A stretch of DNA of 64,000 bases from Escherichia phage ERS-1, in sequence record PP337211, one strand, 5' to 3'. Position numbers and translations under genes: made by a program. The notes beneath the pieces were generated by a model. The model had not been told where the DNA came from, made no database searches, and saw only the letters and a program-made list of their open reading frames with translations. This document shows positions 3,306 through 35,650 of the stretch, piece after piece. Numbering within the stretch: the first letter of the stretch is position 1; each line of letters starts with the position of its first letter.

Positions 3306-3308
3306 GTC

Positions 3309-3617: not shown

Positions 3618-3619
3618 AA

Positions 3620-4419: not shown

Positions 4420-4446
4420 TGGTGTTTAATCCTATGCATGATTTCT

Positions 4447-4922: not shown

Positions 4923-4927
4923 TAAAC

Positions 4928-4971: not shown

Positions 4972-5002
4972 TATGTCTAATGTCGAAGCCACACACCACC
5001 GC

Positions 5003-10503: not shown

Positions 10504-10758
10504 GTGACCGCCCGCTGGGCTGCTCCGCTCGCCTTCGCCGTCCTGCTGCTCTGGGGCCTGGCGGGGGTCTTTGCGGACTATCCTGGACCGCCCGGAGGTT
10601 TGTATCAGCTACCTGACCCGGGAGTGTGTGCGCGTGGTGAACGCGGACGGCTCCCCCGGGATCGTGTGGAGCCCTCCCGGACCGCTATGAGCGAGTGTGG
10701 GTGGAGAAGATTCTGTTTCAACCCTGAGAAAGGAGTTGCGCTACGTCTTTTTGGGTAG
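10504..10758 (+). CDS. secreted or lipoprotein-like hypothetical protein (signal-peptide-like N-terminus)
   Basis: GTG start after GACGAGG; MTARWAAPLAFAVLLLWGLAGVFADYPGPPGG looks like a signal peptide with AxA-type cleavage site. Confidence 0.35.
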   Translation: MTARWAAPLAFAVLLLWGLAGVFADYPGPPGGLYQLPDPGVCARGERGRLPRDRVEPSRTAMSECGWRRFCFNPEKGVALRLFG

Positions 10759-13700: not shown

Positions 13701-16410
13701 CCTTCTCCTCGCCGGCGGTTGTCGTTTGCATCGCCCGCCTGGCGATCCCGGGACCGCGACCGCTCCGCTGAAGGAACTCCCGTGGTGGAGACGCCGGGCG
13801 CTGCTCGCCCTCCTCCCGAAGCCGGATGACGAGGGTCCTGATCCGGGGCGGGAGAGGTTGATGATCGAGAGAATGGCACCCGGGCGGCGGTTTTTCGGCA
13901 ACCTACGCCCTGAAGAGGGCGAGGAGGCTGCGCGGGTGCTTGGGCCGCGGCCTTCGAGGCGATTGCCCTGATCCCCTCCGCGAAGCCGGAGGAGGTCCTG
14001 GGTTACCTGGACCTGCGCGTATGGGCGTCCCACCGCGGATGAAGTTCTGACGGTACCCGGTCGCCCGCCGGGTGGAGTTCCGCCGGGCTCGCCTCGCGCG
14101 TGCCCTTCGCGGAGATTCAACGCCAAACCGCCCGCGGGGCCTTCGAGGACTGACCATGATACGCTTTGACAAGTCGAAGCCTACGTGGGCGACTTCCTGA
14201 GCGAACTCCGCGGGACGGGGCCTGGGCGGAACATCGTGAAGGACTCGCCCGCCCAGCTCGGCCCTACCCGGAGCGGGCGCTGTGGACCGGGAGGCGGCTC
14301 GCCTTCCTGGGCGAGCCCGGGACTACCGCCTGGAGCTGCGCCGGATCGAAGGCGGGCACTGGGAGGCGATCCGCGAGGAGCGCGACCCGGACCGCTTCAA
14401 CCTGCTGATGAGTCGACCTCGCGTAAGGAGGGCGACGCCATGAAACCAAGACTGAAGCGTAGCGCCCCAAACGGGATGCAGGAGCCGGAAGGCGCAGCGG
14501 GTGCCGCCGGTGAACCTTGACGCGGCGATCGCGGGGCCTCCGCCTTCTCGCCTTCGCCCTGTTCCGTCCGGGCTGTCGTGGAGGCTATCGTGGACCTGCG
14601 CGTAGACGGCCCGGTGTCCGACGGCGACGGCTCCGCGGCGACCTCCTGGGAGGAGCTGGAGCGGTCCTGGGGAGGAGACGGTGGAAGGTATGAGGGCCGG
14701 AACTTGAAGGAGAACCGGGCTGGGAGCTGTGCTGGCATCGTCCCGGAGGTTCCCTTTGTTGGAAGAGGTGACGGGCTACGCCCGCGCCTGCCCTGGAGGC
14801 CAGAATTCCGTTTCGGGATGCGGGGTACCGAAGGAGTGAGAGATGGATCGGAGCGAGTTCTGAGCTGGCTGCGGAGCCTGTTCGGCGGACGCCCGCCGCC
14901 CCGCCGCCGGAGTCGGACTGATCGCCTGGCCCGGATGATGGCCCCGGGCTTCGAACCTTGGCTGCCCCTACCCGGAGAACTTCCCCTTGGAACTTATCGA
15001 ACTGTGGGGGCGTGGTGAAAAATGATTCGACCGGTGACCTTCTCTGGGCGACCGCCTGGGGTTCGGAGTCGCCCGCCTGGTGCACCCGCCCTCCGGCGGA
15101 GGCACTGCCTTGTGGCTAAGGTCGAAAACCACCGCCAGTCCTTCCGGATGTCGCGGAATGGCCGTGGCCAGTCCAGTTTGCCCCTGGGCGCGCCTGGTCG
15201 CCCCGCGTCGCCGCCTGGCCCCGCGGCATCGTCCTGATCCAGGAGCGGACGCGACCCCTGCCCCGGCGGCGAACTGCCGAAGGCAGCTGCCCGACTTCTT
15301 CACCGACCTGAAGCCGGAGAACTTCGGCCTGATCGACGGTGGTGGCGGTGCGGCATACGCCCTCCGCCTCGCCTCCTCGAACCTGGTTGGGGAAGGCGAA
15401 GATGAAGAAGGTGAAGAAGGACGAATGGCGACTGCCTGACAAGATCCATGCCCGATGGGAACGGAGCTGGGGCGGAAGTGTTGAGGCGACGGCACGCCGC
15501 TGCTGAGTTCGGTGATCCGGGCAGGCGCGGCCGACTTCGCGGACGCGATGCGCCTGGAAGTGGAGAAGAAGCGGGCGGAGGGCCGGCGGTTGGACGATCT
15601 TACCCGGTGCCGGCTGGATTCCCTCGCGGTGATGCTGCTGGATCGCCTGGAGAAGGGCGACCCCGTGGACGGTGCCTTCGCCGGCGCCGCAGACCTACCG
15701 CGGCGACGGAGCGGACGGGTGGGCCCTCCGTCCTCGGGGCGACCTTCCGCGAATGGCTGGATCTCCGCCTGGAGGCCCGGGACATCGTTGCCTCAACCTC
15801 CAAGCCGCTTGGAAGGCCGCGGCCCGGATCGCGGAGCTGGAGGGGATCGCCGGACGCCTCGAAGGCGAGCGCAACGAGGCCCGCCGGTCGCTGGAGGAGG
15901 AGCGGGAGGTGTTCGGGCAGGAGCTGGAGGCGGAGCGGACGCCCGCCGCCGGTCGGAGCTGAACCTGGCCCGTGCCGGAGGGGTTCACCGCGTGACGGAA
16001 GGCGAACCGCCGCTGCCGGGAGTGCGGGCGAGGTCGGCGCAGCGGGTCGGAGGTCGGCCGGGCGGTACCGGATCGCCGCGGACCGCGCCTTGACCTGGGC
16101 GAACCCCGCGACCCCTATCAATTCCGCCGATGGCCCGCCGGAAACCCCGCCGCGGGGAGTACGTCTGCCGCGGGGCCTATCCGGTTCCCGCACCGCTTCG
16201 CAGGCGGTCGCTGCTCGGGCTACTTCATCGCCGTGGAGCAGCGGAGTTGGCACTAGGGGACCGGCGACTGCCGCCTACTGTAACTGCCTCAACCGGACGG
16301 AGGCCGTGCCCACTGCGAAGTGGTGGAGGGCGGCGAGTCGGTCCAGGAATGCCCCGTGTGGCAAGAGTTTGTACGATTCAATGAGATCAAACTGAAGAAG
16401 GAGAAGTGAG

Positions 16411-16968
16411 ATGAGTGATGACAACACGATGGACAGGCGTGATGATCGACCTGGAGACGATGGCGACCGGCCCCAGCGCCGGGGTCGTTTGTCGGGGCCA
16501 TCCGTCGTTCAACTGCCGAACCGGATTGGTGAAGCCGGACCTGTTCGAGGTGGACGTGGACCTTCACGCCGACGCTGGGCGGCGAGGTCGATGCTTCCGG
16601 CGGTCGGTCTGGCGGGACCAGGTGGACCCTGCCCAGCGCTGGCCGAAGGCGATGCGCTCCGCGCTGACCGACCTCGCCCTCCTGGTCGGGGTACCCGGAC
16701 CGAAGCGGGTCTGGGCCGGGGCTGTCCTTTGACGTTGCCATCTAGGGTTACTATCGCCGGCGGGCGTCCCGATCCCCTGGCATACTCCGCGCTGATGCTG
16801 ACACCCGAACCGTGTATGACCTGGCGAAGGAGCGGGGCTGGTCGAAGCCGGAGGGGGAACGGGGCCGTTCTGCCGCCTGGAGGACTGCCGCTGCCGTACC
16901 CTTGCCGTCCATCAGCGCCCTGAACGTCCTCCGGGGCAGCCTGAAGGAGAACCCGGTAATTGGCTGAC
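16411..16968 (+). pseudogene. DnaQ/DEDD-like 3'-5' exonuclease, frame-disrupted
   Basis: AAGGAGA RBS then ATG 16411; Exo I-like motif VMIDLETMATGPSAGVV (16439-16489) sits in a different frame from the start codon; protein-like C-terminus ...SISALNVLRGSLKENPVIG ending at 16968 in a third frame. Confidence 0.35.
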
Positions 16969-19900
16969 GAATCGACTTGAAGGATGGAATTCCCTTCCCC
17001 CCTTGCGGACCGCGAAGTGGCCCGGATCGCGGAGGAGGCGGCGACACACCGCCCGGGAGCCGGCGACTGTGACCTGTGTGGCGAATGGAGCGGGAGGCTG
17101 GTGGAGGAGTCTGTGCGCCCTGTCGGACCGCCCGGGCTTTGCCGGTGAATCGAAGAAGTTGTATGAGGGCTCTACTTCTTGCAGGCCCCCCGCCACTCTC
17201 CTTCGTTGCAGGTACCGGCCTGAAAATGGAGAACGGCGATGACCTGGATTTCCGCCTCCAACCCGACACCCGCGCCACTGCCCCGCTTCGTGGCCGGTTT
17301 CACTGTCCTCGCCTCTGGCGGTAGCCCTCCGCGACCCTCGGCTACGCCTTCAGCCGCTAGAGCGTGGTTCCTGGCCTGGTCCGGCGACTCTGCATGGCAT
17401 GCTGGAGGATGTACCGTGAAGGACGTGTACTGGAACCTGGCCCACTACCCCCGTCTGGAAGGCTCGGGTGCCCCCGCCCTCGCCCTCCGAAGTTCCTGGC
17501 GTCATCCCCGACCGTCGCCCGAATTGAAGCCCTGGGTGGAGTTCCGCGCCCCGAAGGCTGCGCCGGTGGTGAAGGCGGGAGCGCTTCTGCCAGGGGCGCC
17601 GGGTGCCCGCCCCGCGCCCGGGCTGGCCAGTCCTGATGGAGCTGGCAAGCCCTGGTCCGCCGCTGCTCCATGGTCCAGCCCCGCGAAAGTCCGGTCGGCG
17701 TAGGAAGGACGGAACCGATCCTCGCCGGCGAGCGCCTGGGCTCGCCGCGGGCCTTCGACCACCACCCGGGTTGAAGGAGCCCGCGTGTATCTGGAAGGAT
17801 GAGCCGCCGCTGGAGGGAAAGGCCCGAGGAAGATGGAAGCGAGTACCAGAAGCGGGAGGGCTCCGGCCCTCCCCCCCGCGGGTCGAAAAAAGTTGTCTGC
17901 TGGGCTGACCTTCTTCGGGTTGGGTCACTTTTTGTTAGGCCGTAGAAATGGAGAACTGAAATCAGCCGACTCCCGCCCAGGTCGCTGCCCGCGAACTGAT
18001 CGCAGGCTGGGGCTCGCCTCGCTGGGCGATGTCCGGGTTGTCAAGCCGCTGACCCTCCCGGCCGGAGTACCTCCGCGGCCCGCTCCTTCGCCGGTGACCG
18101 CGCGATCCGCCGGATCGGTGCCGGTCCTCCGCGGGACGTCCCCCTGGCAGCTGATCGGCTTCGGACCTCGCGGAGGTCGCCGGGCCCTCTGGAAGTCGGC
18201 TGCCGTTGACCGGGAGGGCCTGGCTCTCCCCCTCCCGGAGAAGGAGCCCCTTGTGAACCGGTGGCCGCCTTCCCCACCCCCTCCCCTCGTCCCCACTCCT
18301 GTTCATCGGAGTCGGGGAGCTGGGGCTGCTCTTCACCCTCCGCGAGACGGAGCTGAAGGCCGTCCCGGGTCCTGGCCCACGGACGCGGTGGTGAATGGCG
18401 TGTATCGGGGTCCTCCGAGGTCCGTGCTCCCGTGAAGAACCTGAGCCGGGACCGACGAAGCCTTCGAGAAGGCCCGGAAGCCTCTGCAGCGTATGGGCCG
18501 AGCCGGTGACCTCCCGCGACTCCCTGCGCGAGGAAATGAACGCGATTCACCGCGTGACGCTGCGGAGCTGGAGCGCCGGGAGCGCGAGCGGAAGGAGCGC
18601 GAGGACCGCCTGGGCCGCGGAACGGGCCGCGGAGGAGGAGGAGAAGCGCCTGTACCTTCCTGGGCTGGAAGTTTGCCTTCGGACCTACGCGTGGCGAGTT
18701 CCCAGGCCCCGCGGGCTGGCCTCCGCCGGTCGATCCAGCCTCCGGACTTCGAGGAAGGTGGCCTGATGCGCCTGACCGCCCGTGAGGTCGCCCGCCGGGT
18801 CCCTGTCCTCGCCCGCCGAAGCCGAAGCCCGACCTGTACGTGGGCGAGCCGAGAGTGCATCACCTTCGACGTGACCGTGGTGCGCCGTACCCTTGCGCCC
18901 GTGACGCCTGGAACGGCTACGGTATCGAGACGGTCCAGGCGTTGCGATGATCGACCGCGCGACCGGGGCCTGCCTCGTGTCCAAGTCCGGGGCCTTCTAC
19001 GCGGAGGAAGGCGAGGAGCTGAAGATCAAGGCCACCGTGAAGGAGCACGCGGAGCACCGCGGCCAGGCCCAGACCGTTGTCCAGCGGGTCGCGGTGCTGG
19101 AGGACTACCGGATGCGCCGGGAACCTCTCAGCTCGCGGTTGTTCGGAGGGCGAGCTGTACGCCGCCTGCACCAGGACCCCCTCACCGGGGCTCTTACGCA
19201 GTGGCCTTTGCCGGAGCCCTCGGGGAGGCCCGGCCGTCGCCCTCGTTGACTGGACTCGCTGAAGTGGACGGGTCACCTGCCCGGGCTTACCGCGTGGGTG
19301 ATTAAGCTTCGCGCTTGGCGGACGCCCTCGTGCGATCCTTCGGAGCTGACCGGGCGTTCCGCGCGTCGGGCGATGAGTTCGCCGTTATGGGTGATAGCCG
19401 TGAACGTCTGCCCGGGCTCGCTTCTCCGCGCGAGGGTCCGGGTTTCTGCTTCGGACGGGGATCGGAGGCGGCGGAGGCGGACGGCGACCTGGCGCGTCGA
19501 GGGGCGGAGGGGGAGCGGTCCGGCCTTCGGGGCCGCGCGAGGGCTCCTCGACCGCCTTGGGGTCGATCATCGACCTCCGGGGGGCTTTACTTCTTCGGAG
19601 GCCCCCCGTCACACTTCTTTGTCGGGCGGTCCGGACCCGGAGAACGGCTGCCGGGGCGGCTGGGCATTTACTGTCTCCCCTGTCCAGGCCACGGACCTGC
19701 GCCTCCAAAGTTCTCCCGACCTTCTTTCGGGCGTGACTTCCTCCGGGTCCAAACGGCCCTGGACCGCCTCCTTAGATGGCGGAGGAGTAGGACGGTGCGC
19801 ACTGGTTCATGTACAAGCTGTCCAACGGTGCGACTGACCTGGCCCCGGCGATCACCGACCGGAAGCTGCGACTGACCGTGGACACCAACGGCTACGGGCG

Positions 19901-21825: not shown

Positions 21826-22490
21826 ATGTCCCTGGCTGAGTTCGAGGACCGCGTGGCGGATCCCCTGCCTCATCGTGGTCACCACCGGGAGCCCTGACGT
21901 GCCCGCGAAGTGCTGCGGCCCGCCTGAAGATCGCTACCCGGCGGAAGGCGGATGCGGTGAATGGGAAGTCCGCGACCGCCGCGGACGCCCGCCCCCTGGC
22001 CTGGAGCGGGGTATGACGGAGGCGGAGCGCGAAGCGGTTGACCTGGCCGTGTTCGATCCGTGCGGAGGACCGGCGATGACCTGCGTGCGCGTCCCCGGGG
22101 GTCGCTTGCCGTCGCCCTCTTCCGGCTCCGCCTCGCGGACGGCTCCTGCGCGTCGGAGCCCTGCCACCTGCGGGCTGCCTCTTCCGCGACCGGCGGCTGG
22201 CGTCTTCACACGAGTGGTGGAGGACCCCTGCGATCTGCGCCGCCCTGGACTGGTCCTTCAACGAGGAAAACGGGCCGACCGCCCTCGCCGCGGGATGCCC
22301 CGCCGGGTGGTCCCGCGGTGCCGACTGGTCGAGTCGGAGGCCGAAGGCTGCGGAAAACCGGCGGGCTCCCCCTCCTTCTCCCTTCCACCGGGTGCGCTTG
22401 GGTTACGGGAGTGCGCTTGGGTTCGGCTCCAAAAGTATGAAGGGGTGCGTGGCGGGAAGTTGTAGCCGTCTGGGGTTCCTGCCTTGCGCT
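21826..22490 (+). pseudogene. hypothetical protein, last gene before island 1; frame-disrupted
   Basis: GGGAGGTGAACG-ATG at 21813-21828 (MSLAEFEDRVADPL then stop); protein-like text resumes in other frames (GMTEAEREAVDLAVFDPCGGPAMTCVRVPGGRL; ICAALDWSFNEENGPTALAAGCPAGW); stop at 22488-22490. Confidence 0.35.
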
Positions 22491-22597
22491 TAGGTTACTT
22501 GGGATTCTTACCTGAAACAAATTTGCCCAGGGTTGACCCGGCGGACCGGCCTGAGAATCCTTGTTGAGGCTTCCGGCTGTCCGAGGGCTTCCTGGGG

Positions 22598-22700
22598 CTA
22601 AGGTAAGTAAGTTAAGTAAGTTAAGTATCTATCTATCTATCTATCTATAAAGGGCTGTTTTATATGGCCTTTTTGCCCGCTTGACTTTTTACTTTTTCGG
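22598..22700 (+). promoter_or_regulatory. island 1: AAGGTAAGTAAGTTAAGTAAGTTAAG (stops in all three frames) + (TATC)6 microsatellite + TATAAA + TTGACT + T-rich run
   Basis: Directly read; AT-rich intergenic module between the 22490 stop and the SD+GTG start at 22927; homologous inverted copy at 63420-63515. Confidence 0.7.
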
Positions 22701-22926
22701 ACGTGGAAGTGAAGCGCGACCCCTCGAACCTAAGCGGAGGACGCCGCGTGCCTGCTTGGGTCTGTTGCCCGTCGCTCCCGCGCCTCCCCCGCGGGCGAGC
22801 GCGACCCGCCCTTGGCGAACGCAGGCTTCGCCAGACTCGCGGCGAGGATGTCCTTGGGCGTGAGGCCGGGACGGATCGCCGCGTGATGCGCGATTGACGG
22901 GCGGTGCTGCCCAAGGGGGAGGTGAT

Positions 22927-24000
22927 GTGCCCATTGAGAAACTGAAGCCGAAGCCGATGGTGCCCTTGCCCTTGGATGGAAGCAGTACCTGGAGTTGTTC
23001 CGCACGTCCCGACCTGGGTGGGTGGAAGTACCGTGCGCGGAGGCGTGGGCGTCTCCGGCTCCGCCGTTCCACTATGCCGTTGAAGAATGACCCGGAGTTT
23101 GCCCTGGCTCTGCAGGACGCCCGCCAAGCGTGGATTGATGAGATCCTGTTGCGCGGCCCTGAAGCGGGCGCGGGACGGCGCGGCAGCGCCCGATCGGTCG
23201 GGGAAGTTCAAGGACGAAATTATTGGATGAGCGGGTGTACTGTGATTCGCTGATGGCCTTGACGCTCCGCGCCCGCCGTGCGGAGTTCGGGAGGACGGGA
23301 GGACGTGGCCTGTATCACTGCCCTCGGCCCGGTGGGCGCCGATCGTCCCGGGCCCCGGCGTCGACCGGACGACTGGGAATTGTTTGGGACCTCGCCCGCG
23401 GGACCGTGGGCCGTCCGACCGGGAGGGCGATGTTCGCCTGGTCCCAAGCGGGCAGGCGGTTGCCATCGCCGCCCGCCCGGACTACCCGATCGAGCGGCGC
23501 GAGGCGGAGCCCGGCGAGCTGCGGGCACCACGTGGACCCGGAGACGGGAAGGAGTCGGAGGCGACCTGGTGCGGGTACGGGTTGCAGCTCGCCTTCCTCG
23601 GCGTCCCGATCTTCGAGGTGCTGTATGAGGGGACGCGCGGCCCGGGCAAGACCGACTGCCGATGGACTTCCTCCAGCACGTGGGGAAGGGCTACGGTTGG
23701 AGCGGCGGGGTCCCCGTTCCGTCTGGCAGGGACCCCCGCTGTCGGACGTGATCAGACACAAAACCAACAAGTGGTTCAAGCGTTTCTTCCCGGCTAAGTA
23801 CAGGCAAGGTGGGTTGGCGACCTTCCCGGCACGGCGAGGAGCTGCTGCTGTGTCGGCGGTCGCCGGAGGATTATTGGAACTACCCACGGCCACGTGCCCG
23901 TGGATTGGCTGGGAAGAACTCTTGGGCTGGGCCTGACAGCGCCACCGTTGCGACGTCCTGCCGCCGCTCCCAAGCCGGGGATGCCCCGCCGCGACCCGGG
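22927..24000 (+). pseudogene. P-loop NTPase-containing coding region (copy 1), candidate packaging/terminase-like ATPase, frame-disrupted
   Basis: GGGGGAGGTG RBS then GTG 22927; Walker A GTRGPGKTD at 23630-23656; further protein-like segments in shifting frames (MPLKNDPEFALALQDARQAWIDEILL; DFLQHVGKGYGW; SDVIRHKTNKWFKRFFPAKYRQGG). Confidence 0.35.
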
Positions 24001-25688
24001 CGACCGGCCCCACGGCCCCGCCCCTGGCTGGGTCAGGCCCGCTCCCGCCTCCCCCGTTGCGCGGTCGGGTGATCCTGGACGCGATGCGAGACGGCGAGCG
24101 CGAACCGCCCCGGGTCGCCTTCCCGGTTCCTTTCCCATGAGAACCGGGTTGCTCCTCGCTGACCCGGAGGGCCTGGTATTCGAGCCGCGGCCCGGAACCC
24201 CTCCGACTCGCCGCCTGGCTCCACGGCTCCTGCAGGTTGTTTGCGGGAGGATGTTGTACGAGGCTTGCACCGCGGGACGCACCGCGGCGCCCTCCGTCCC
24301 GCTGTCGGTGATCCCGAAGCGGTGGAAGATCGACCTGCGGCTTCCACCGGGCCGGAGCCCTTTGCCGTCCTGTGGTGGGCGGAGTCGAATGGGAGCCGTT
24401 CGAGCGGAATGGCCGCGTGTACGGAAGGTGCGGGGGCGATCTGTACCTGATCCTGTAGCGGGTACGGCTGGAACGGGAACGCGAGCAGGGCGTCCTGCGG
24501 CTCGCCTCGGAGGTCGCCCAGTGGGTGAAGGACCGGGAGGAGGATTGGGCGCTGGAAGGTCGGGTCAGCCCTGGCCCCCGCGACCTTCTCCTCACGTGGA
24601 GGTATGGGGCCTGGATTGCTGTGGAGGCGGAGAGAGGGTGTGCGCCTGGACGCCCGCGGGAGGCTGGGCTCGCGGGTGGGCTGGGAGGGGTTGGCTGTCG
24701 GAGGGCGCTGCCTCCGGCGGCGGGGACCGCGCCAGGTCCCTGGGCTGTTCGGTTTTTTCGACCCGTGCTGGTGTCGTCCAGACGGTCCCGCGCTGCCCCG
24801 CGATGAGGTGTACCTGGGATGACGTGAAGGCGGAGGCGGAGGACCGGTTGGTGACGCGACCGCTACCGCGTGCGGGGTAAGCTGCGTGGTGCGGTGGTGG
24901 CCCGCAGAGGCTCGGCCGGGTCCTCGCCTTCGGGCGAGAATCCGCGAACCTGGAGAACCGACGGCCGGCGAGACGGCAGCCCTGCCGACCTGCGGGGCGT
25001 ATTAACCGCGCTCCCGCGCTGGCCCACGCTCCAGACGCCGCCTGGGCGGGACCGAAGGGCGCGCGAGGCGGGCGAGACGTACCTACCCCGCCCTCGGAGG
25101 AGACGGCAGGGTGGGCTATCGGGAGCGCCTGGCCTCCGCCGCTCCTCCTCGGCGGTTGAACCTGGGCGCCTGGACCTGCCCTGCAGCGGAGCCCTTTGCC
25201 AGCCGATCAAGCCGGCCAGGACGTGCCCGGAGGCGATCCAGGAGATGATCCTGCCTGACGTGGACCTCCTGGGGCTGCCCACGCGTTCGCCCGTCCTGTG
25301 GTTCCGCCAGCCTATCCGGTGAGGCCCTGGCCTCCTCGTCCAGACCGCCTCGCCCGGCCCCGCGGAGGATGGCCTACCCGGACCTGGCGGATGACCGCCG
25401 GGAGGGCCTGCGCCCTGACTGGGTGATGATCCAAGCCGGAGGCGCCCGCTGTTGGCCCGGTCGGAGGTGATCAAATGGGGCCCGAGTCCTCTGCGTGCTG
25501 CTGTCCAAGTTACGAGGCGGAGGCAGGACGGCTTCGCGCAGGCTTGGGAGCGCTGTCCGCGTCCTGGAGCTGGGCCTTGTCCCGGCTCTGGCAGCCGGTG
25601 AGAAGTTGGTGGTCCCGCAAGGAGGAGTGGGTGCTGGCGGATGAGCGGGCCATGGGGCTGAACCACGTCCCTGTGGTTGCCTTTACGC

Positions 25689-25719
25689 CAGACGACTACA
25701 AACGGAATCTACAGCACCT
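25689..25719 (-). repeat. right 31-bp inverted repeat of block A (reverse complement reads aggtgctgtagattccgtttgtagtcgtctg)
   Basis: 30/31 match to 4928-4958 in inverted orientation. Confidence 0.8.
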
Positions 25720-25725
25720 GAGTAT

Positions 25726-25771
25726 GTATTGCTAAGGTTAGAGGGAAACACGATAGAATCCAACAGCACCT
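25726..25771 (-). repeat. partial J-unit, variant b, inverted (aggtgctgt-tggattctatcgtgtttccctc-taaccttagcaatac on the minus strand)
   Basis: Shares the aggtgctgt head and taaccttagcaatac tail with the J-units; middle resembles the 26008-26040 variant. Confidence 0.7.
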
Positions 25772-25996
25772 AAAAAGGTTCAACTTTTTACTAAATAATA
25801 AATGTTGTAGTATCTTCTTAAAACGAAAAATTTAATTTGCTTTAAAACCTTCCCAATTTTTTTTGCCTTTTTTTAACATACGTCAGAACATGGAAGAATG
25901 GTGGCCGTTTTTTACACTGTGAAGAAACAATTTTGAACTTTTAAATGACTTCCATTTATATTGTTTTAATTTCCTTTTTTCCCGTTTGTTGTTAAT
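25772..25996. other. AT-rich spacer without a convincing ORF, phage-like (T-even-like) composition, T-runs
   Basis: Sharp GC drop between two GC-rich blocks; only very short ORFs; ends in a T11 run leading into J-unit 2. Confidence 0.4.
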
Positions 25997-26098
25997 TTTT
26001 TTTTTTAGGTGCTGTTCCGGATTTATCGTGTTTCCTGATTAACCTTAGCAATACGTAACTGAACGAAGTACATAAAAACACCAATTGCTAAGGTTAAA
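25997..26098 (+). repeat. J-unit copy 2: T11 + aggtgctgt + variant spacer + 14-bp palindrome arms around a 32-nt loop
   Basis: Same architecture and arm sequence as 4678-4780. Confidence 0.8.
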
Positions 26099-26099
26099 A

Positions 26100-27216
26100 G
26101 GTTACACAAACCCTGGACAAGCAGCACCCTCCCTTTGCGGTGTTCTCCGGCTCCGCCTTGTCCTTTGAGAGCGGAGGGGTGTCGCTTGTTGATGCAGCGG
26201 GCGATGGCGAACATGGACCAGAGGTGCGGGTGGTCCGCGAGGGCTGACGGATGCTTCTCGTCCGGTCCTGGTCCCACCCTTCCGGTTGGCTCCTGGAAGA
26301 TGTTGGGTACTGCCTGTTCCAGACCGGGTCCGCGGTCGGGCCGGGGCTTCCCGGCCTTGCGGTCCGGTAGATGTCGCGCCGGGCCTTCAAGGCGGCGACG
26401 TCGTCGACGCGCGGGGTGGTCGGTGCTGGGTCCTGGTCGGGCCCTCCGATGACGGCCTTGATGTCCTTCAGGGCCGTCTCCCTGTGGATGTCGCGGACCG
26501 TCTCGCCGTCCGCCAGGGCCTCCCGCGGACCTGGGCGATGGCGCGGTGCTTGTTGGTCCTTCCCTGGTCCTCCTCGACGGGCTTCCCGCCGTCGCGCTCC
26601 TGGATGTGCTTTGGCTTCCAGCGGCGTGTCCTGAAGGCCGGGTCGCCGCCGTTCGCCTTCGACCGCCACCCTGCGTTGGTACCTGTAGATGGTGCTGATG
26701 GCCGCCCTCAAACCTTACCGCCTTCACGTCCGGGTCCCGCCCAACCAGCTCCGCGACGGCCTTGGCGGCGGCTTGGGTCTTGATCCGGTCTGGGCCGGCG
26801 GTGGTCGCTCCGGCGGCGGCGGTGTAGTCCCCGATGATGGCGATGCCGTCCGGGGCGTGTTGCCGGGATCGGCTTGTGGTCCGGGGACGATGACGTTGAT
26901 GACGCGGGCGGATCGCGGGCCAGGCTGCGCGGGGGTGTGCTCTGCCGGAGCCGTATGCCCTGCCCGTCGATGTACTTCGGTTGGTTTTCCAGTTTGGTTG
27001 AAAACGGCGGAGCCGGAGCCCCCGCCTGGGGTTGCTGTTGGACCCTGCGCGATCGGATGATCTTGCGCTCGCCGCCGTCCTCCTCCGGCGGGGCTGGTTT
27101 CCCGACCTCTGAGTCTGGGCGAGCGGCCTTCGCCGCCCCAGGTTCCGAACCGCGGGCTCGGCTCGTCGTCGTCCGCGCGGTGGAGACCTGGCCGGTGGGG
27201 GGCGGCTTCCCCTCAC
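26100..27216 (-). pseudogene. hypothetical protein, frame-disrupted
   Basis: Protein-like segments in two minus frames (DGIAIIGDYTAAAGATTAGPDRIKTQAAAKAVAELVGRDPDVKAV; EALADGETVRDIHRETALKDIKAVIGGPDQDPAPTTPRVDDVAALKARRDIYRTARPG). Confidence 0.3.
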
Positions 27217-27521
27217 CTCCTGGAGGGCTGGCCCGTCGGTCCGGGTGAAGGTTCGGGACGCGCTGGCCGTGGCGGCCCCGCGGCGATCATTTCACGCCTT
27301 CCAAAGCCAGTGCCGGTTCGCCGGTTCCGGGCTTCCCGCGGCGGTCCAGGCGTGTCGTCGCGTAGGTCGTTGCCGCGCTCCGTCGCCGGTTCGGTACCTG
27401 CCGGCGGGCTTCGACCCGGCACGGCTCGCGATGGTCTTTCCGGGCTCCGGCCTGGTTCTCCGCGGGCTGTCGGCGAAGGCTTTGGTGCGCCCCGGGCTGA
27501 ACCGCTTTTGGAGGTGTTCGA

Positions 27522-28655
27522 TCATTGCTGGAGCCCTGCTGTAGCCCGCTTCCCGAATTTTGCGATTGCGTGGTCGTTGCCGACCGCGGCCTGGCGCTCG
27601 AAGCTGTGGCGGATGTCGTCGTGGGTGACGATCCCCGGGATTACCGGATTGACCTGATGGAGGTGTACATGCCCGACGCGCGCTCGCGATTTCGTCGGGA
27701 TGGTCCTGAAGGCTGATGGCCCCGGAGGCTCGTGCCGTTGTGGTCGTTGCCGGTGTTCGGTGACTTCTGGGCGTAGCTGTAGGGGTTCCGCTTCGGAGGT
27801 CGATGGCCGGATGGGGTAGCAGACGGCCGGGAAGAAGACTGGGCCGGGAGTTGGCGAAGGCTTCCGCCCCCGCCTGGGTGTTATGGGGCGCTTTGAAACG
27901 GTGAAGGGGTCCGTGAAGCTGGAGAAGCAGCCCGCGGCGGAGGTCCGGACTTCGAGAGGCATTTTGCGGACCTGCTCGCCGTAGTTCACCGGGACGCTGA
28001 TGAGGCCGGTGCCGCGGTAGCCCCGGAACCCGCTGTCGACGTAGAAGGCGCAACCCACTGTAGCCCCATAAGGCTCCGTCAGGATCGCCTCGCTGCAGGG
28101 GCGGGCGCGGGAGCCTCGCTTGTCGTTGTGCTTGTCCTGGCACCTGCCCTGAAGGGGCTTGGCGTTCGGGATGCGGATGTGCGGGAGGTAGGTGACGACC
28201 CTTTGAAGCCGGTAGGCCCAGCCCTTCACCTCCTTCTTGTCGTCTCTCCTTCGCGTTGCGGACCGTCCCCCCTGCCTTGCCGGAACTTCGCGCGCTGGCG
28301 CCGGTCCTGCACCCTTCTCCCCCATCGGGCCCGGAACTCCCGTTGGTTCGGTCCGGCGGCGAAATACTTGTAAGCCTCCTGAGCGGCTTCGCCGGTGCCT
28401 TCCTGCCCTTGCCTGCGTGGTCCGGTCATTCTCCTTCAACTGTGAAAAAAGTCTTGAGCGCCTTACCCGGAAGAAGTAAGCGGCGTTAATCGGCCCCGGC
28501 TCGCCACGTTGTTTCCGGGAGGTCCCCTGGCCTTCGCTCCTCCGAATGCCGGCGACCGGCGAACTGCCGGAACCGCGCGGCGACCCTTCCGCGTCATATC
28601 CTCCAGGTTGTCCTTTTGGGACCCGAGGGAACAAATGCTCGGGGTTGACGCACAA
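27522..28655 (-). pseudogene. hypothetical protein with possible metal-dependent hydrolase motifs
   Basis: Long protein-like stretch (KGWAYRLQRVVTYLPHIRIPNAKPLQGRCQDKHNDKRG...) and GHVHLH; family not identified. Confidence 0.25.
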
Positions 28656-30700
28656 CGGTCGGTCGCAGCGATGAACTTACGTTATCGCCGTCGGGATGGA
28701 CCGTCGAACCTGGCCGAAGGATAGCCGATGAGTGCCGTCTTAGTCTCATGTTGGCGTGCTGCTTATCATTGACTGGGAGCCGTTGGTTGGTCCCGTCTCC
28801 GGTCTTGATAGTGGGCGTCGAAGTAGGTGAGCCGGTCCGTCGATTACCCCATGTTCGGAATGATGGGGCGTGGGATGGACGAAGCCCGTTGAGCGGTTGC
28901 TGCGCTTTAGCTTTTGGGTTGGTAACGGGTTGGGGGAACGGGGCGGAGGCGTCCCGGGCTGCGTCCGCGTACCCGTAGCCCTCGTCGTATTACCGGTCAC
29001 CCGGTTGCCGGGTGCCTGGCCGCGGCCTTCCCCATGTACTCCCGGGTGGCGTCCTGGCTCTGCAGTATCCTTGTGGAGGATGACGTTGTAGTTGCGGGCC
29101 CGCCCCCTCCAAGCCCTCTTCAGTGCCCGGCGGCGACCGTCCCCGAGCTGAGACTGATGACCGGGGTCCCGGAGTCCGGGAGGTGCGGGGCGGTGCGGAC
29201 GGCCTCCGCGGGCGTTCTCCGTGATCGACTCCGGGAGCTTCGGGTGTTCGGCTGTAGCTGTCGTGGGAGTTCTCCCGTGCTTCTTGGCCGGACGGGGATC
29301 GCGGAGCGGCCCGCCGGCATGTCCAGGTCCGCCCCGAGCTGGCGAGCGCGCCCGCCGCCGGACGCGCGGGGCGTCCGCGGCCCCGTCGCGCTTGAAGCGG
29401 GGCCAGTAGTCCACGGCCTGTTTCCCAGCTGCTGGCAGGCGACCGCCCGGCCCGCCTTCGAGCGGTACGTGTCCGGCTGCCGATGGTGGTTCTTGTGGTC
29501 TCGATATGGGCGAGGCCCCGCCAATCTCGCTGAAGGACGGCACCGGGAGCGGGTGCTCTCCCCGCTTCAGGATCGGACCCCGTTGAGCGGGCGTTTGACC
29601 GGGCGTCGTTGACGACGTTGCTGCCTGGCGTGGTCGAGGAAGGCCCGTGCGGCGGAGGGCGGCCTGCCCGGTTCGAGCCCGCCGTCGATTTCCCGGATGT
29701 TGTTCCGTGGGTAGTGGCCGTTCGACGGTGGGGATTTTCCATTTACACAGCACCGTTCTACCTCTGCATGTTCGGCGGGTGGTTGCCCGGGTGGGCGGGG
29801 CGAGGTCCGCGAACCGCTGGTTTGCAGTCCGCCACCCGGACGCTTGATCGCCTCGCGCTTGGGCTTCGCGTTCTCCGGGTACTGTGAGCCTCGCGCTGCT
29901 CCGCGTTGCGGCCTTCTCCGGGTCCTTGAAGGTTAAGGCGGCGTCGTGCCGAAGTCGGCCGCACTTCACCGGTTCGACCTGTCCGCGATCTTGAAGCCGA
30001 TCCGGTCGGACCGAAGCCGTCGTGCTCCTGGGCGCGGGCGGAGACGGTGCGGAAGGGCAGGCGCTCCTCCGTCGCCCGGGCTCTCCCGTGCCCCGCCTCC
30101 GGGCGGTCGCCGTAGCGGGCCTGGAGGGAGGTTGCGGAGTCACGGTATCGGCCTGTAGCGGCGGTGCTCGCGTCCCCGGGGGCCTGTGCTCCCCCGGCGG
30201 GCGTCTCCTCCTCGTCGCGGGCCGCGACCTTCCCGGTGCGGCAACTCCTCGCCCTCCTCCACCAGGAAGGAGGCCACCCGGCGTGGTAGCTCCAGAATAA
30301 CCGAGGAGCCCGGGAGCTGCGGCACGGAGAAGTCCCCCGCCTCCTCCGCCCGAACCAGGGCCGTGTACACGGGTCCAGATCGCCGGTGGTGATCAGGTGT
30401 CGGCCGGGGTCGTCTCGATGTCCGGTCGCGGGGCAAGTTCTGCTCGGCTTTTTCTGGGTATGCGTGACTGATTTTCCCGGCTCAGGTCTTTGCGATGTCC
30501 GGTTCAGAGAATTGGCGACGAAGGAAGGCTCCGGCGGGACTTTTCGTCACGTGATACGGGAATGGACTTGTCTGGCGCCGCCGTCGCCGTCCTCCGTGAT
30601 CCCTGGTGAACCCGGCAGGAGCTTGAAGGGCTCCGTTCTGTATCCCCGCTCCGCCGGGCACCTGCCCGGCGGGGGTGCGGTGTGCGCTCCGAGGCTCCCG

Positions 30701-31380: not shown

Positions 31381-31460
31381 GTTGAGGTGCGATCTTGTTC
31401 GACCGTGAGAGAAATCTTAACCCTGCCCCCGAAGAAGTAAAGTGGTTTGACTAAACTTTT
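31381..31460 (-). promoter_or_regulatory. lower-GC intergenic island with sigma70-like elements (TTTACT-17-TAAGAT on the minus strand) and a TTGACT/T-run motif resembling the islands
   Basis: Read on the minus strand upstream of the 31363 start. Confidence 0.3.
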
Positions 31461-31949
31461 TCAGTTTCCCGTCCGAAGGCCAGGTGCCCGTTGGACGGCG
31501 GAGGGCGAACCGTTGGCGCCTCTTCCCAGAAGGCCCGGGCGGCGTCTCGTGCCCTGTTCTCCTGTACCAATGGTTGCGCCCCGAGGTGTGCGGGAACCCA
31601 GCGACCTCGAAGCCCCAGCGATGTTGGGTTGCACTGGTGGAAGTCCAGGTGCTGGGCCGGGTAGCCGAAAGCCTCTGCGACGTTCCGCCCAACGAGGATG
31701 ACGTGCCGACCGCCCAACAAGGGCTTCCCTCGCGGCTGCGGGCCCCGCGTCCCGGGCGGGCCGCTGTCGTCCCGCTTCCAGCGCCCCGGGAAGGTGTGGA
31801 GCAGGTGGTGCGGTCGAAGGTCTTGAGGTAGTCCTTGGGCGATAGGCCTGCCTGCTCGCCCGACGCCCTCCCGCGGAGGACCGCGGAGGGGAGCCAGGGG
31901 CCGGTCCGGGTCCGCGTTAGGTCCTGGCGCTGGCCGATCTGGGCTTGTT

Positions 31950-33400
31950 CGTTCTTTCGGGCACATTTCTCTGGGTGACGTTCTGTTTGAGGTCCGCTCC
32001 GGCACCGGGATGGCCCTTTGAGGGCGTCCCGGTTGGAGTACCCGGTGGTGATCTGGGTGATCACCGCCTTTGGCTTGTCTTTGCACCTCCGTCCGGTGGC
32101 CGGTCGATGCGGTCGGCTTGCCGGCTCCTCCGCCGGGCGTCCGCTTCGGCTCGCCGCCGTCATCCTTCACCCGAGGATGCCCACCGCTTCCCGCCAGCGG
32201 AAGGTCGTGCAGCCCTTCGCCCCGCCTTCCCGGCGCCGCTGTCTCGAAGTCCTCCCGCTGATGTCGGAGCGCCGCTCGCTCGCCGCGGAATCGACCCGCT
32301 GGGCGGCGACGGTCGGGCGGCGACGTGTTCCTGGACGGTGACGCGGGAGCGCCTTGCCGCGGACCCGACGCGGTCCGCAGTCCTCCCTCCCCCGCGCCGC
32401 GGGCCGCTGAACTCGATTGCGGTGCGGTCGAAGCTGTAGGCGAGTCGCTTCGGTCCCGGAGCTGACGTTGTCGGCCCAGGCTGACGGTCCCGGTCGGGGC
32501 GATGGAAGTGAGGTGGGAGTTGCGGATGCCGTATTTGGCGATGGCGTCCTGCGTCCTCGCGGAGGGTCTTGATGAACTGGCCCTGAAGGTACTTGTCCTT
32601 GTCGAACTTCGGGAAGGAGCCCTTGACCTTGGCGATGTGGGCGCTGGCCGTAGGGCTGCGCCTGCGTGTTGGTACCCTTGCCTCGAAGGCGAGGAAGGCG
32701 GGCGAACCGTACGATGGCCTGGGCTTCGGCAGCGTTGGCCAGGCCGGTGATCCCGAGGCCCTTGCGGCGCTTGTCCTTGGCTTCCTGCTTCTGCGCGGCG
32801 GTAGATCGCGCGATCGTACCGTTGTGCCATTGCGTGGACCTTCCTGCGGGATGTCCTCGCGGAACTGGTCCCGTCGAAGGCGTAGTGGCCCGCCCCGTCC
32901 TCTAAGATGTACTTTACCTGTTGAAGGAGCCGGTGGTGCCGTAGGGCGGTAGGGTTGTCGTCCGTGGGGTTCGTGGCGGCGATGGTCTTGGGTTGGGCGT
33001 CGTTTGCGGTTGATCGCGTCGATGAACTTACGTCCCCGGCTCTGCCGGGTTGCCGGCTCGTGGCGATTGCGTCCTGGCGCCCGGGCGTCCGCTTCGCGGT
33101 AGGTCCGGCCCTCGAAGGTGAGGGGAACGGCTCGCCGGAGGCGACGCCGGCGCTGTCGGTGATGGCGACGGAGACGTTGAAGCCTGTTGCTTCTGGTCCG
33201 CTGAAGGGGATGATGGCCGCCGCTTCTCGGGGCTCCCTCCGGGAGTCGGTCCTCGAGGTCCGAGCGGCTGAACGTCCTTCCCGGGTCGCTTGGCGTGACG
33301 AACTCCTCGATGTCGGGATGGTCCGCGCATCACCCCCCCCGGGCTCCGCGGCGATGGCCGGCAGGAGGCGACGCACTGGGATCGCGTCGAAGATGTGCAT
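31950..33400 (-). pseudogene. ribonucleotide reductase large subunit (class I or II, NrdA/E/J-like), frame-disrupted
   Basis: Minus-strand motif AKYGIRNSHLTSIAPTGTVSLG at 32474-32533, then ADNVSSGTEA and RLAYSFDRTAIEF in shifted frames, resembling the conserved YGIRNSLL..APT...EP...Y.RR...GEF region of class I R1 proteins as I remember it; gene bounds uncertain. Confidence 0.45.
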
Positions 33401-33799
33401 GAAGCTGATGGGGCCGGAGGAGTGGGACTGGAGCTTGCGGATCAGGTCGCCGCGAGGACGGAGGGTGCTGAAGTCAGGCCGATCCCGCCGCCCTTCCCGG
33501 TTGTGGCCTGCGGCTTCCGCGGCCCGGATTGACGGAGCCTTCGCCGTCCGCTTGAAGCTGTCGTTGATCGTCCCGGAGACGTAGCCTGTCCGTATGGCGT
33601 GACCTGGCGAGTGGAGCCCGTCGCGGACCGGATGCGGCCCGCCGGGAGGAAGTGGTACGCCTGCGAGGGCGTCCCGGAAGTCCGCGAAGTGCTGGTCATT
33701 GTCCTTCAGGGCCGCGGCGATCCGGTTCGTGGCCTCGCGGAAGGACTCGCCGCTGCCGCGGTACTTCTGGGCGTGTAGTTCTGTGAGTAGGGTACTTGA

Positions 33800-35650
33800 G
33801 GACCTGTCGGTGAGTCTCCTCGAAGGGTTGAGGGCTTTCTATCGTGTTGTTGCTCCTGTTCTTGGGCTAGGCGGTGAACGAGGTCGATGCGTTCCGCGGC
33901 CCGGGTAATGGCGGTGTACAACCCTTTCCTTCCGGCTCCTTCCCGTACCCCGTCCGGGGTGGCAGGACGTTGTTCCTTTGGGAGCCCTGCGACTTGTGGA
34001 CGGTGAGCGCACCTGCCCTGTCGAACTCCTCCGCGCCTTCCGCTCCCAGACTTCGGCTTGTTGCCGTGGAAGTAGTGGGGGTGGGCGCTGACTTCGACCT
34101 TCGCGCCGTCCTCGCCTTCGATGTCCTTGATGGAGTCGCTGTTGAAGATCGTGTCACGGCGGACCTTCCGGCTGGCCGTCGAGCAGGCCCGCCCTTCGTG
34201 GTCGTGAGGGGCCTTTGCCGTCGCCTTCCTGGGTGGGCGCGTCCGCCCGAGGAGTTCCCGGGACGTCGTCGCTCGTGATTCTCGTGGCGTTCCTGCCGGG
34301 TCAGGAGCTGGTCGGTGGACAGTACCATGTCCCGGAGTTCTTCGCGTGGTGGCGGCCATAGGAATCACGCGGCTGGCACCGTAGTCGCCGGGGGCGGAGC
34401 ACGCGGCCCTCGCGGACCTCCTTGGAGGTCCGGTCATCGGGTTGTCCTGGGCCTGGCGGTGAATCTCCGCGAGGACGTCGGGCTTGTCTTGAAGCAAGGG
34501 CGCTGCCGGGCGGGAGCTGTCCGGGATCGCCCGGGTGAGGACCGGTGCCGAAGTGAGGCCCTCCCCCCCGCCTGCCCGGACGGCGGAAGAATTCGCTTGC
34601 CGAGCGCGGCCCTCCAACCTGGGCGACTCCGCGTTGAGCTGGAAGGTCGGGCGGGCGAGGTTGATCTGCTCCGCCTTGATCGCCGGATCGACTTCTCCGG
34701 TCAGGGTTTCCGGGACGGGCTTGCGAGTGAGTAGCCGCGCCCGCTCCGCTTGGAGTTCCCTGGCGCTGCTGCGACTTGTCCTTGGGCGTGTAGATGAAGC
34801 TGCGAATGGTAATTCTCCGTTGGTCGCCCCGGACTTCGTGAGGACGTGAGCGGCCTTGCCGGTGTAGGCGGCGAAGGTGCCGGGACCTTTGACGGTCGCG
34901 GCGAGGTGTTTGGCCGGGTGGCCTGCCGGTTCCGGCGTACCCGGCGAGCTGGAAGGCAGGGCTTGTCCCGGGTCTTGACGTTGCCTGTCCTGGTTGGCGC
35001 GGTCTGCTGTTGGCGTACTCCGCGATGACCGTTCTCCGTTTCTGATAAGAAGGGGGGCCCTTGAAGGCCCCTGAAGGCACGCCGAGGGGGCGGGCCGTCC
35101 GGGCTGGTCCTCCCGGGTATCGGGTTGGCTGCCGCCGCCTGCGCCTGGGCTTCTCGTCGCGGCAGCCGGAGCTGGCGACGGGCGGCGCGGGCCTTGCCCT
35201 GCTGATCGTCGATTCGATGTCGGCGGACTGGAACAGCGGGTCATCGGGCAGGAGGCGAGCCGTGGGCGTTCTCTCGCCGTCGAAGGCGATGGTGTCCTGT
35301 TGAAGAAGGGCCCTTGTCGTCTGTCGGCTCGAGGCGGTAGCGGTGGGCGGCTGCGGAGCCGGGATGCGGCGACCGTCCCGGAATCCTGGATGGTCTTGGC
35401 CTTGTACCCTCTGCCCTTGTACTTCTTGATCTTCGTGGAGCCGAAGGCCCGACCGCTTCCCAGGCGTTGCCGCTGTTGCGCGTGCCGGCCCCGGTGGTGT
35501 AAGGTTCCGATTGGCTCGTTGCCGTCCGGGGGTGCTGCAGCTGCCGTGCTCGAGGACGCGGCCTTGGCGGTTCGCCGGGTCGCCGTCGACTCTGGGATGC
35601 CCGTTGCACCGCCGCCGCATCGCGGGGCTTCCACCACCGCACGTGCTGGG
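33800..35650 (-). pseudogene. RecD/TraA-like superfamily 1 DNA helicase, frame-disrupted
   Basis: Motif I LAGYAGTG (34926-34949), Ia FAAYTGKAAHVL (~34838-34870), V LTVHKSQGSQ (33975-34007), VI GLYTAITRA (33901-33921) in correct order and spacing but three different frames. Confidence 0.6.

Follow-up and report, generated by a model that had tools for sequence, protein, structure and literature searches.

The large inverted duplication that appears to join positions 22092-25688 and 60518-64000 of the window (the whole 64,000-nucleotide stretch of sequence record PP337211 that was analysed) is a sequencing artefact and no feature of any genome. With a probability of about 94%, the window is an unsplit and untrimmed chain of ONT reads, in which the “duplication” is a 3.6-kb overlap of two Yuavirus reads from opposite strands with errors that hypermodification would have brought about. 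The chain would comprise at least five native-barcoded ONT reads (a read that is chimeric or was not split, or a concatenation to the same effect), including two long reads from opposite strands of one ~62-kb genome of an M6/YuA-like Pseudomonas siphovirus. Because reads with their adapters and differing barcodes were never split or trimmed, two Yuavirus reads would have ended up within one sequence, and their shared part, the single-copy TerS-TerL-portal region, would look like an inverted duplication. The divergence of 25-30% and the ~300 mostly 1-2-nt indels would result from adding up the basecalling errors that each read acquired independently. A bulky thymidine hypermodification would make the basecaller fail at the T of TG on the strand in the pore and, since the TG sites affected in each read would be those of the strand sequenced, the copies would be damaged at different positions.

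The first-pass annotation had described a large inverted colinear similarity, and this similarity is real and far above chance. Self-BLAST of the window aligned 22336-23710 with 63785-62414 (74.5% identity, E 5e-141), 24008-24740 with 62137-61409 (75.2%, E 1e-77) and 24915-24967 with 61249-61196 (90.9%), and the semi-global alignment of 22092-25688 (copy A) with the reverse complement of 64000-60518 (copy B) gave 70.5% identity over 3,769 columns. The similarity is continuous (0.54-0.81 per 200 columns) and not confined to short motifs. The divergence, earlier put at 15-25%, was measured at 25-30%, and the earlier boundaries held approximately: the right copy begins at ~60518 instead of 60390, and the left copy at ~22092 instead of 22300, at which point its partner meets the window edge at 64000. 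Copy A stops at an ONT barcode (25688/25689) and copy B at the window edge. It is plausible that the similarity goes on past 64000, since the left read covers another 17 kb of the same genome, as further read overlap and not as a longer duplication.

The copies differ by 652 mismatches and by 308 gap runs (1 nt long in 205 cases, 2 nt in 71) that together make up 458 columns. As had been noticed from the sequence, the indels are mostly non-triplet: 285 runs are not multiples of 3 and only 23 are. About 8% of the columns are 1-2-nt indels, and these lie in essential genes; TerL carries 60 frameshifting indel runs in copy A and 72 in copy B. The GKTD codons common to both copies (Table 1), just after which indels had been reported, belong to the Walker A motif of the large terminase (GTRGPGKTD), and the frame is indeed lost just downstream in both copies. 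The mismatches are asymmetric (G/A 143 vs A/G 34; T/C 107 vs C/T 22), and the AT skew is below zero in both copies despite their being reverse complements (skew of the Pseudomonas phage PaTs-2 reference, -0.109).

Table 1. Coordinates of reads, junctions and genes in the window (J1 and J2, adapter/barcode junctions; RC, reverse complement)
Feature	Position	Strand	Basis
T4-like coliphage read (Tequatrovirus; nrdD/nrdG/gp55 region), 33% GC	1-4667	-	nucleotide match
Junction J1	4693-5041	-	barcode, flank, adapter matches
J1: AGGTGCTG + BC02 + TTAACCTTAGCAAT	BC02 4701-4724		
J1: adapter top strand, RC	about 4733-4757		
J1: flank	4767-4780		
J1: T4-like mini-insert, 147 nt	4781-4927		
J1: second AGGTGCTG + BC02 + flank	BC02 4936-4959		
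J1: noisy adapter	4966-5003		
J1: AAGGTTAA-like flank + noisy BC07 RC + CAGCACCT	BC07 5011-5033; CAGCACCT 5034-5041		
Yuavirus read A	5042-25688	-	maps to PaTs-2 35418->13967, window + = reference minus
Copy A, final 3.6 kb of read A	22092-25688	+ (genes on window +)	alignment, reference mapping
Copy A hypothetical gene	22076-22278	+	reference mapping
Copy A intergenic	22279-22924		reference mapping
Copy A TerS	22925-23430	+	reference mapping
Copy A TerL	23430-24911	+	Walker A GKTD at 23645
Copy A portal, 3' part	24963-25688	+	reference mapping
Junction J2	25689-26129	-	barcode, flank, adapter matches
J2: BC02 RC, then CAGCACCT	25689-25711		
J2: truncated adapter + flank	25720-25740		
J2: BC04 RC, then CAGCACCT	25741-25763		
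J2: T4-like mini-insert, 236 nt, with T11 run	25772-26006		
J2: AGGTGCTG + BC04 + TTAACCTTAGCAAT	BC04 26015-26038		
J2: adapter top strand RC with leader remnant	26053-26082		
J2: flank + BC05 RC (exact) + CAGCACC(C)	BC05 26098-26121		
Yuavirus read B, cut by window edge	26130-64000	-	PaTs-2 39995-61815 then 1-17511, window + = reference +
Read B 5-hmdU DNA kinase	26434-26980		reference mapping
Read B radical SAM	27036-28424		reference mapping
Read B HNH insert	28479-28924		reference mapping
Read B PLP enzyme	28924-29616		reference mapping
Read B amino acid:DNA transferase	29616-30446		reference mapping
Copy B, portion of read B overlapping read A	60518-64000	- (genes on window minus)	alignment, reference mapping
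Copy B portal	59775-61201	-	reference mapping
Copy B TerL	61257-62696	-	Walker A GKTD at 62477
Copy B TerS	62696-63196	-	reference mapping
Copy B intergenic	63197-63837		reference mapping

The inserts that flank the adapter blocks stem from templates that are unrelated or not adjacent: Tequatrovirus stands against Yuavirus, with a GC step from 33% to 67% at J1, and the two Yuavirus inserts lie on opposite strands with non-adjacent coordinates. The T4-like read, which serves as an internal control on run quality, best matches KFS-EC3 (97.2% identity across 99% of the query) among hundreds of Tequatrovirus matches, and is 96-98% identical to a T4-like reference with just 21 gap columns in about 4,700. 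Read A (DNA polymerase, accessory genes, then TerS, TerL and the 3' part of the portal gene) gave a single 21.8-kb alignment to PaTs-2 (81.9% identity, 931 gap opens) that reaches 25688, where the barcode starts. Beyond the genes of its first kilobases listed in Table 1, read B contains RNR, helicase, tail and head genes, portal, TerL and TerS, and its alignment to LKO4 extends to window position 63999. The reads are collinear with PaTs-2 over 20.6 kb (A) and 37.7 kb (B), on opposite strands. Window-wide, 58 kb align collinearly to PaTs-2 and LKO4, which assigns them to Yuavirus (Mesyanzhinovviridae), and an 8-kb query matched 48 phage records with at least 80% coverage. We also considered LKO4 as the closer reference on account of the common HNH insert and rejected it (76-82% identity, collinearity broken at 19-22 kb). 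Yuaviruses vary from one another by a few percent, and some have homing endonucleases that others lack.

The junctions were resolved against published ONT barcode and adapter sequences (PMC6290886, which gives the native barcode list; bioRxiv 10.1101/2023.11.26.568539; PMC11533379). The ONT ligation adapter (AATGTACTTCGTTCAGTTACGTATTGCT / GCAATACGTAACTGAACGAAGT) is present, its top strand matching 27 of 28 positions at 26049-26075 (minus) and 21.5 of 28 at J1. Within the window, TTAACCTTAGCAAT occurs five times and BC02 three times (0 expected in shuffled sequence), BC04 twice, BC05 exactly and BC07 in a noisy form. A search of viral_contigs for the exact adapter pattern and one of metagenome_contigs for a junction pattern specific to the window both gave 0 hits, and the GenBank phage collection contains no match at 100%. 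At both junctions the adapter top strand sits on the window minus strand; the assignment of read orientation rests on the 5' part of this top strand and the leader remnant, the other adapter and barcode structure being reverse-complement symmetric. The stretch 25688-25720 is irregular in that BC02, in the “wrong” configuration, adjoins the phage insert directly. The barcodes also differ between the Yuavirus reads (noisy BC07 for read A, BC05 for read B), and these reads may come from two samples or isolates, with a small share of the difference being real.

On PaTs-2 the two reads overlap at 13967-~17680 (portal 3' part, TerL, TerS), a region that is single-copy in PaTs-2 and occurs once in the LKO4 annotation. 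In a MAFFT three-way alignment, which under-aligns (60% pairwise identity vs 70.5% by dynamic programming) and was used for pattern counts only, one copy equals the reference in 1,352 of the 1,494 columns (90%) in which the copies disagree, and a departure from the reference shared by both copies occurs in only 113 of 3,791 columns (3%). True divergence from the reference is at most about 3%. The per-read error in the overlap is about 17% and about 19%, and it is uniform along all 58 kb of both reads, with the profile of raw reads (~900 gap opens per 20 kb, deletion-dominated, reads 5% shorter than the reference). The copy identity expected from these rates is (1-0.172)(1-0.191) = 0.67, plus shared true differences. 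Since the observed 70.5% is close to this product of the per-read accuracies, real divergence of the templates could amount to a few percent at most. The indels had been attributed either to divergence without coding constraint or to independent errors; these counts bear out the second part and not the first. What was taken for a duplication in a genome is a single-copy locus covered by two raw nanopore reads, with a barcode beginning at 25688/25689.

A genuine inverted duplication in a phage or bacterial genome, with copies decaying as pseudogenes, would account for the inverted collinear similarity with its non-triplet indels and for the frameshifts in both copies. It would have to do so, however, with one copy bounded by ONT adapters and barcodes, adapter blocks between the copies and related genomes that hold the region once. 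The essential TerL gene is about equally broken in both copies, which a viable phage could not tolerate, and pseudogene decay explains neither why one of the two copies has the reference state at 90% of the differences nor why the error rate is the same over the whole 58 kb as in the overlap. The differences are moreover specific to read and strand and centred on TG of the sequenced strand (see below). This reading is effectively refuted, and we give it practically no weight. That two related Yuavirus isolates were sequenced, and that true divergence between strains accounts for much of the 25-30% difference, agrees with the differing barcodes and with the natural variation among Yuaviruses, including their variably present homing endonucleases. 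Yet this is very improbable given how rarely both reads agree against PaTs-2, how often one of them equals it where they disagree, the density of 1-2-nt indels in essential genes and an observed identity that the per-read accuracies nearly predict.

The errors in the Yuavirus reads cluster at a single dinucleotide: on the sequenced strand, the T of 5'-TG-3' is wrong in 72-79% of cases, the T before C in 9-14%, and a T at least 8 nt from any TG in 4-8%, the baseline. The TG error is 65-85% in every flanking context; a search for an additional T context at some set distance from the hot spot revealed no influence of any base up to 5 nt away on either side. From a TG site, errors extend about 5 nt in each direction, and 59-67% of the errors in the overlap fall no more than 2 nt away from a TG of the sequenced strand, although such positions make up only 24-29% of the columns, while TG sites of the other strand show no error enrichment in the overlap of reads A and B. 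The pattern was replicated with LKO4 as reference. A second signal, in read orientation, is the miscalling of A after C or T as G (17-28%), which does not spread to neighbours. These miscalls at CA/TA steps, where A would pair with modified T, could reflect a basecaller bias or an added property of the DNA; the 5-NedU papers considered yielded no counterpart.

Raw nanopore accuracy can be as low as 80-90% where older basecallers were used, and it is often a little lower for GC-rich templates. The overlap of the two reads could for this reason be combined with nothing more specific than poor basecalling of GC-rich DNA, or with a stretch of low quality in the run, and with no modification involved. 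We consider this improbable, though less so than strain divergence. The errors are specific to the template: the T4-like read, the adapters and the barcodes in the same string were called at 96-100%, and long GC-rich stretches without TG were read perfectly. Generic failure would also not be expected to concentrate on a single dinucleotide in every context and to fall to baseline 8 nt away. An adenine modification (of the Z-genome or Mom-like type), with A under-called and the hot spot on the A of CA in window orientation, was rejected on the position of the adapter top strand and leader on the minus strand; because the top strand lies there, it is the T of TG that forms the hot spot, in agreement with published chemistry. 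With the opposite read orientation, the A of CA would become the hot spot, and nothing in the known chemistry of Yuavirus accounts for that.

The preferred reading, basecalling errors at modified T, fits what is known of the genus. In phage M6, 5-NedU (5-(2-aminoethyl)-2'-deoxyuridine) replaces about 30% of T, and it has been predicted for YuA-like phages (PMC5889632); TG/TC is found in the restriction-resistant sites of M6, whose kinase modifies TG (PMC6449724). PaTs-2 encodes a 5-hmdU DNA kinase, an amino acid:DNA transferase, a radical SAM enzyme, a PLP enzyme and a ThyA-like enzyme. Frameshifts make the ORFs of the window itself unsuitable for a protein-level family search, and the PaTs-2 proteins were used instead: Pfam recovered PF18748, PF18724, PF04055 (below the curated cut-off), PF00291 and PF00303, in keeping with a gene set of the 5-NedU type (kinase, transferase, radical SAM isomerase, PLP decarboxylase and dUMP hydroxymethylase), with homologous DNA at 26434-30446 of the window. 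By analogy with 5-NedU in M6, we infer that the error pattern reflects the thymidine hypermodification known from Yuavirus. We lean slightly towards reading the error footprint as a single-base modification map, in which essentially every T in TG would be modified on both strands and T in TC, TT and TA would show baseline error where no TG is near. If true, this map sharpens the published inference of “TG or TC” and accounts for about 30% of T. A search of the literature on nanopore sequencing of Yuavirus or 5-NedU DNA found no description of such an error signature.

The similarity therefore carries no genomic meaning: there is no duplication, pseudogene decay or new element to explain. It is a matter of data hygiene, as a contig-like 64-kb sequence consists of raw barcoded reads from different phages, and gene calls, skew analyses and repeats derived from such a read chain are unreliable. 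The 893-aa ORF at 60756-63437 has no family match, and eight long ORFs (397-893 aa), which we considered as genes, have no Pfam family above cut-off and were rejected as by-products of miscalling that removed stop codons. Long false ORFs like these, that at 60756-63437 among them, probably arise from the under-calling of T, also in TGA stops. The error pattern also shows how strongly nanopore basecalling can fail on hypermodified phage DNA, and ordinary public raw reads may suffice to locate modified sites, here TG.

Chains of this kind are known from chimeric or unsplit ONT reads with “middle” adapters, the target of Porechop and of duplex-tools split_on_adapter. As in these, the adapter top strand, flanks (AAGGTTAA...CAGCACCT / AGGTGCTG...TTAACCTTAGCAAT) and 24-nt barcodes stand between unrelated inserts, and every sub-read has one orientation relative to the adapter. 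Unlike the usual case, the chain is very long, with at least five inserts and four barcodes in 64 kb, and has the irregular junction at 25688-25720. Genuine viral inverted repeats, such as the IR/TR of herpesviruses or the terminal inverted repeats of phages, also place kilobase-scale segments in opposite orientation; they are, however, near-identical and part of the genome architecture, whereas the segments here are 70% identical, frameshifted, adapter-bounded and absent as a repeat from related references. A close biological parallel is with the M6/YuA-like 5-NedU phages (PMC5889632, PMC6449724, PMC8989533). The published proposal was TG or TC, whereas the indirect error footprint here covers TG only, with TC at baseline, and would imply near-complete occupancy of TG. 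As in these phages, the Yuavirus sequence is collinear with PaTs-2 and LKO4 and has a homologous modification cluster, and the miscalled base is T in the context TG, a context that holds 28-36% of T here compared with the share of about 30% replaced in M6.

The first-pass annotation described 22300-25688 and 60390-64000 as a large inverted duplication, and the inverted similarity is real and reaches beyond short motifs. Window self-BLAST returned three collinear inverted blocks, 22336-23710 versus 63785-62414 (74.5% identity, E 5e-141), 24008-24740 versus 62137-61409 (75.2%) and 24915-24967 versus 61249-61196 (90.9%), and semi-global alignment placed 22092-25688 (copy A) on the reverse complement of 60518-64000 (copy B) as a single unbroken match of 3769 columns at 70.5% identity. 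The non-triplet indels noted earlier were likewise recovered: the 308 gap runs comprise 205 of 1 nt and 71 of 2 nt, only 23 being multiples of three, and the reading frame is lost in both copies directly after the GKTD codons (23645, plus strand; 62477, minus strand).

GC content switches sharply near 5 kb, from 33% in 1-4971 to about 67% in 4972-64000. Here, and again at 25.7-26.1 kb, the window shows an adapter-type layout, AGGTGCTG-24-nt unit-TTAACCTTAGCAAT-ACGTAACTGAACGAAGTACA and ATTGCTAAGGTTAA-24-nt unit-CAGCACCT. By their sequence, these blocks are the ligation adapter, barcodes and native-barcode flanks of Oxford Nanopore (ONT), as verified against published listings (PMC6290886; bioRxiv 10.1101/2023.11.26.568539; PMC11533379); no such barcode, flank or adapter matches are expected in shuffled sequence. 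They separate a T4-like (Tequatrovirus) read spanning nrdD, nrdG and adjoining small genes, two short T4-like fragments and two long GC-rich reads, A and B.

Barcodes and inserts along the window, with placement of the long reads on the Yuavirus reference PaTs-2
Feature	Window coordinates	Remark
T4-like coliphage read	1-4667	97% identical to KFS-EC3
BC02	4701-4724, 4936-4959, 25689-25711	ONT barcode
Short T4-like fragment	4781-4927	between adapter blocks
BC07	5011-5033	ONT barcode, noisy
Long GC-rich read A	5042-25688	PaTs-2 35418 to 13967, minus strand, one block, 81.9% identity
BC04	25741-25763, 26015-26038	ONT barcode
Short T4-like fragment	25772-26006	between adapter blocks
BC05	26098-26121	ONT barcode, exact
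Long GC-rich read B	26130-64000	26177-63842: PaTs-2 39995-61815 then 1-17511, plus strand, about 79% identity

A second, small inverted repeat (4781-4877 versus 2709-2807, 94-99% identical) is the same artefact: the 147-nt mini-read between adapters and the long T4-like read cover one T4 locus from opposite strands, and the two agree so closely because T4-like DNA is well basecalled. T runs of 15 (4678-4692) and 11 (25996-26006), poly-A in read orientation, separate the barcode's CAGCACCT from where two T4-like inserts begin and are missing from the T4 reference; they may be a tailing artefact or stem from basecalling that stalled on passing from adapter to insert. The junction at 25688-25740 is irregular, as the Yuavirus insert adjoins BC02 directly, without the AAGGTTAA/TTAACC flank, in the configuration expected for the opposite end of an insert, and a truncated adapter (gagtatgtATTGCT) follows; the far end of read A carries the noisy BC07. 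This irregularity points to chimeric ligation or a loss of signal where the read ends.

With 8 kb of the right copy as query, 48 genomes of Yuavirus (M6/YuA-like Pseudomonas siphoviruses) matched across 80% or more of the query, at about 79-80% identity. On the main reference, PaTs-2 (MH791403), reads A and B overlap at 13967 to ~17680 (the 3' part of the portal gene, TerL, TerS and an intergenic stretch), coinciding exactly with the reported duplication. Its framing as a duplication was thus wrong: the TerS-TerL-portal region is present once in PaTs-2, and copy A is bounded by an ONT barcode, which begins where the phage alignment stops, at 25688. Copy B ends at the window edge, the alignment based on the related phage LKO4 extending to 63999. 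The reported duplication is no real genomic feature, and these alignments show the two reads to be one phage genome sequenced from opposite strands. Since their barcodes differ, the templates could differ by a few percent. Source-sequence searches gave no hit in viral_contigs or metagenome_contigs and no 100% match in the GenBank phage set.

At 47247-47253, read B crosses the ends of the linear PaTs-2 record (61815 to 1) with a gap of only 5 nt, so the sequenced molecule has no physical ends at these positions, and the record either has an arbitrary start or represents a circularly permuted or concatemeric genome. The LKO4 record is deposited as circular. About 335 bases more than in PaTs-2 are found at 28479-28924, in the hypermodification cluster, with the radical SAM gene on one side and the PLP gene on the other; LKO4, PC1, PSP2 and others have a matching HNH homing endonuclease gene at the same site. 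The LKO4 homing endonuclease gp64, which adjoins the portal gene, is missing at 59673-59687.

The differences between the copies are independent read errors, an alternative that the first-pass annotation had rightly allowed for. A three-way alignment with PaTs-2 has 1494 columns of disagreement between the copies, and one copy carries the reference state in 1352 of them. The two share a difference from PaTs-2 in just 113 of 3791 columns, which puts true divergence from it at no more than about 3%. Error within the overlap is 17.2% and 19.1% per read, and the product of the two accuracies, 0.67, is near the observed 70.5% identity. Frameshifting indel runs within TerL number 60 in copy A and 72 in copy B, so that neither could code for the essential terminase. 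Copy-to-copy mismatches are lopsided (G/A 143 versus A/G 34; T/C 107 versus C/T 22) and AT skew is negative in both despite their reverse-complement relation (reference skew -0.109), which requires a bias tied to the orientation of each read. The minus strand of read B holds very long ORFs of 649-893 aa (60756-63437, 33706-36219, 42098-44182, 31451-33400), each spanning several real genes and with no or only sub-threshold Pfam matches. They are probably false, because the coding strand was the one sequenced, and the heavy under-calling of T, also in TGA, TAA and TAG, would erase stops.

The T4-like read reaches 96-98% identity to a reference that is itself not an exact match, and gaps take up only 0.45% of columns despite T4-type cytosine modification, and the adapters and barcodes adjoining the phage inserts are almost perfectly called; the fault is thus confined to the Yuavirus template. 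In window orientation the errors cluster around the A of CA (72-79% wrong; the dinucleotide is right in just 14-20% of cases) and reach about 5 nt to each side, with no dependence of the hot spot on any flanking base. The adapter top strand lies on the window minus strand, with 5' ATGT and remnants of the GGGTGTTT...T10 leader, so the molecules were read in the minus direction, which puts the hot spot on the T of 5'-TG-3'. This T, wrong in 72-79% of cases, is called C in 28-30% and deleted in 20-26%, whereas T followed by C is wrong in 9-14% and T separated from every TG by 8 nt or more in 4-8%, the baseline; T in TC, like T far from TG, is at baseline in both reads. The TG-centred result recurs with LKO4 as reference. 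Within the overlap, 59-67% of each read's errors fall within ±2 nt of an own-strand TG, a zone of 24-29% of columns, and TG on the non-sequenced strand shows no enrichment. At least 8 nt from any window CA, T is miscalled in 17-28% of cases before a purine (mostly as C) versus 7-11% before a pyrimidine. In read orientation this secondary signal is a weak A-to-G change at CA and TA steps without spread to neighbouring bases, affecting the A opposite the putatively modified T; either a basecaller preference for CG or some feature of this DNA could account for it.

Yuavirus genomes code for a pathway that hypermodifies thymidine: PaTs-2 carries a 5-hmdU DNA kinase (PF18748), an amino acid:DNA transferase (PF18724) and radical SAM, PLP and ThyA-like enzymes, and DNA homologous to these genes lies at 26434-30446. 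From the error footprint and the literature, we infer that hypermodified thymidine in the Yuavirus template would cause the frequent basecalling errors at TG. In phage M6 the sites that resist restriction have TG or TC in them, and the phage's kinase modifies TG (PMC6449724). The footprint is plausibly a single-base readout of hypermodified T sites in this phage genus, and would place the modified base at TG, near-stoichiometrically and without TC; if true, TG-only placement sharpens the published indirect inference.

5-(2-aminoethyl)-deoxyuridine takes the place of about 30% of thymidines in M6 and is predicted in YuA-like phages too (PMC5889632); the TG share in both Yuavirus reads is similar, at 28-36% of all T. 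The window lacks the defining features of a genomic inverted duplication and resembles, in every feature tested, an untrimmed, chimeric chain of ONT native-barcoded reads.
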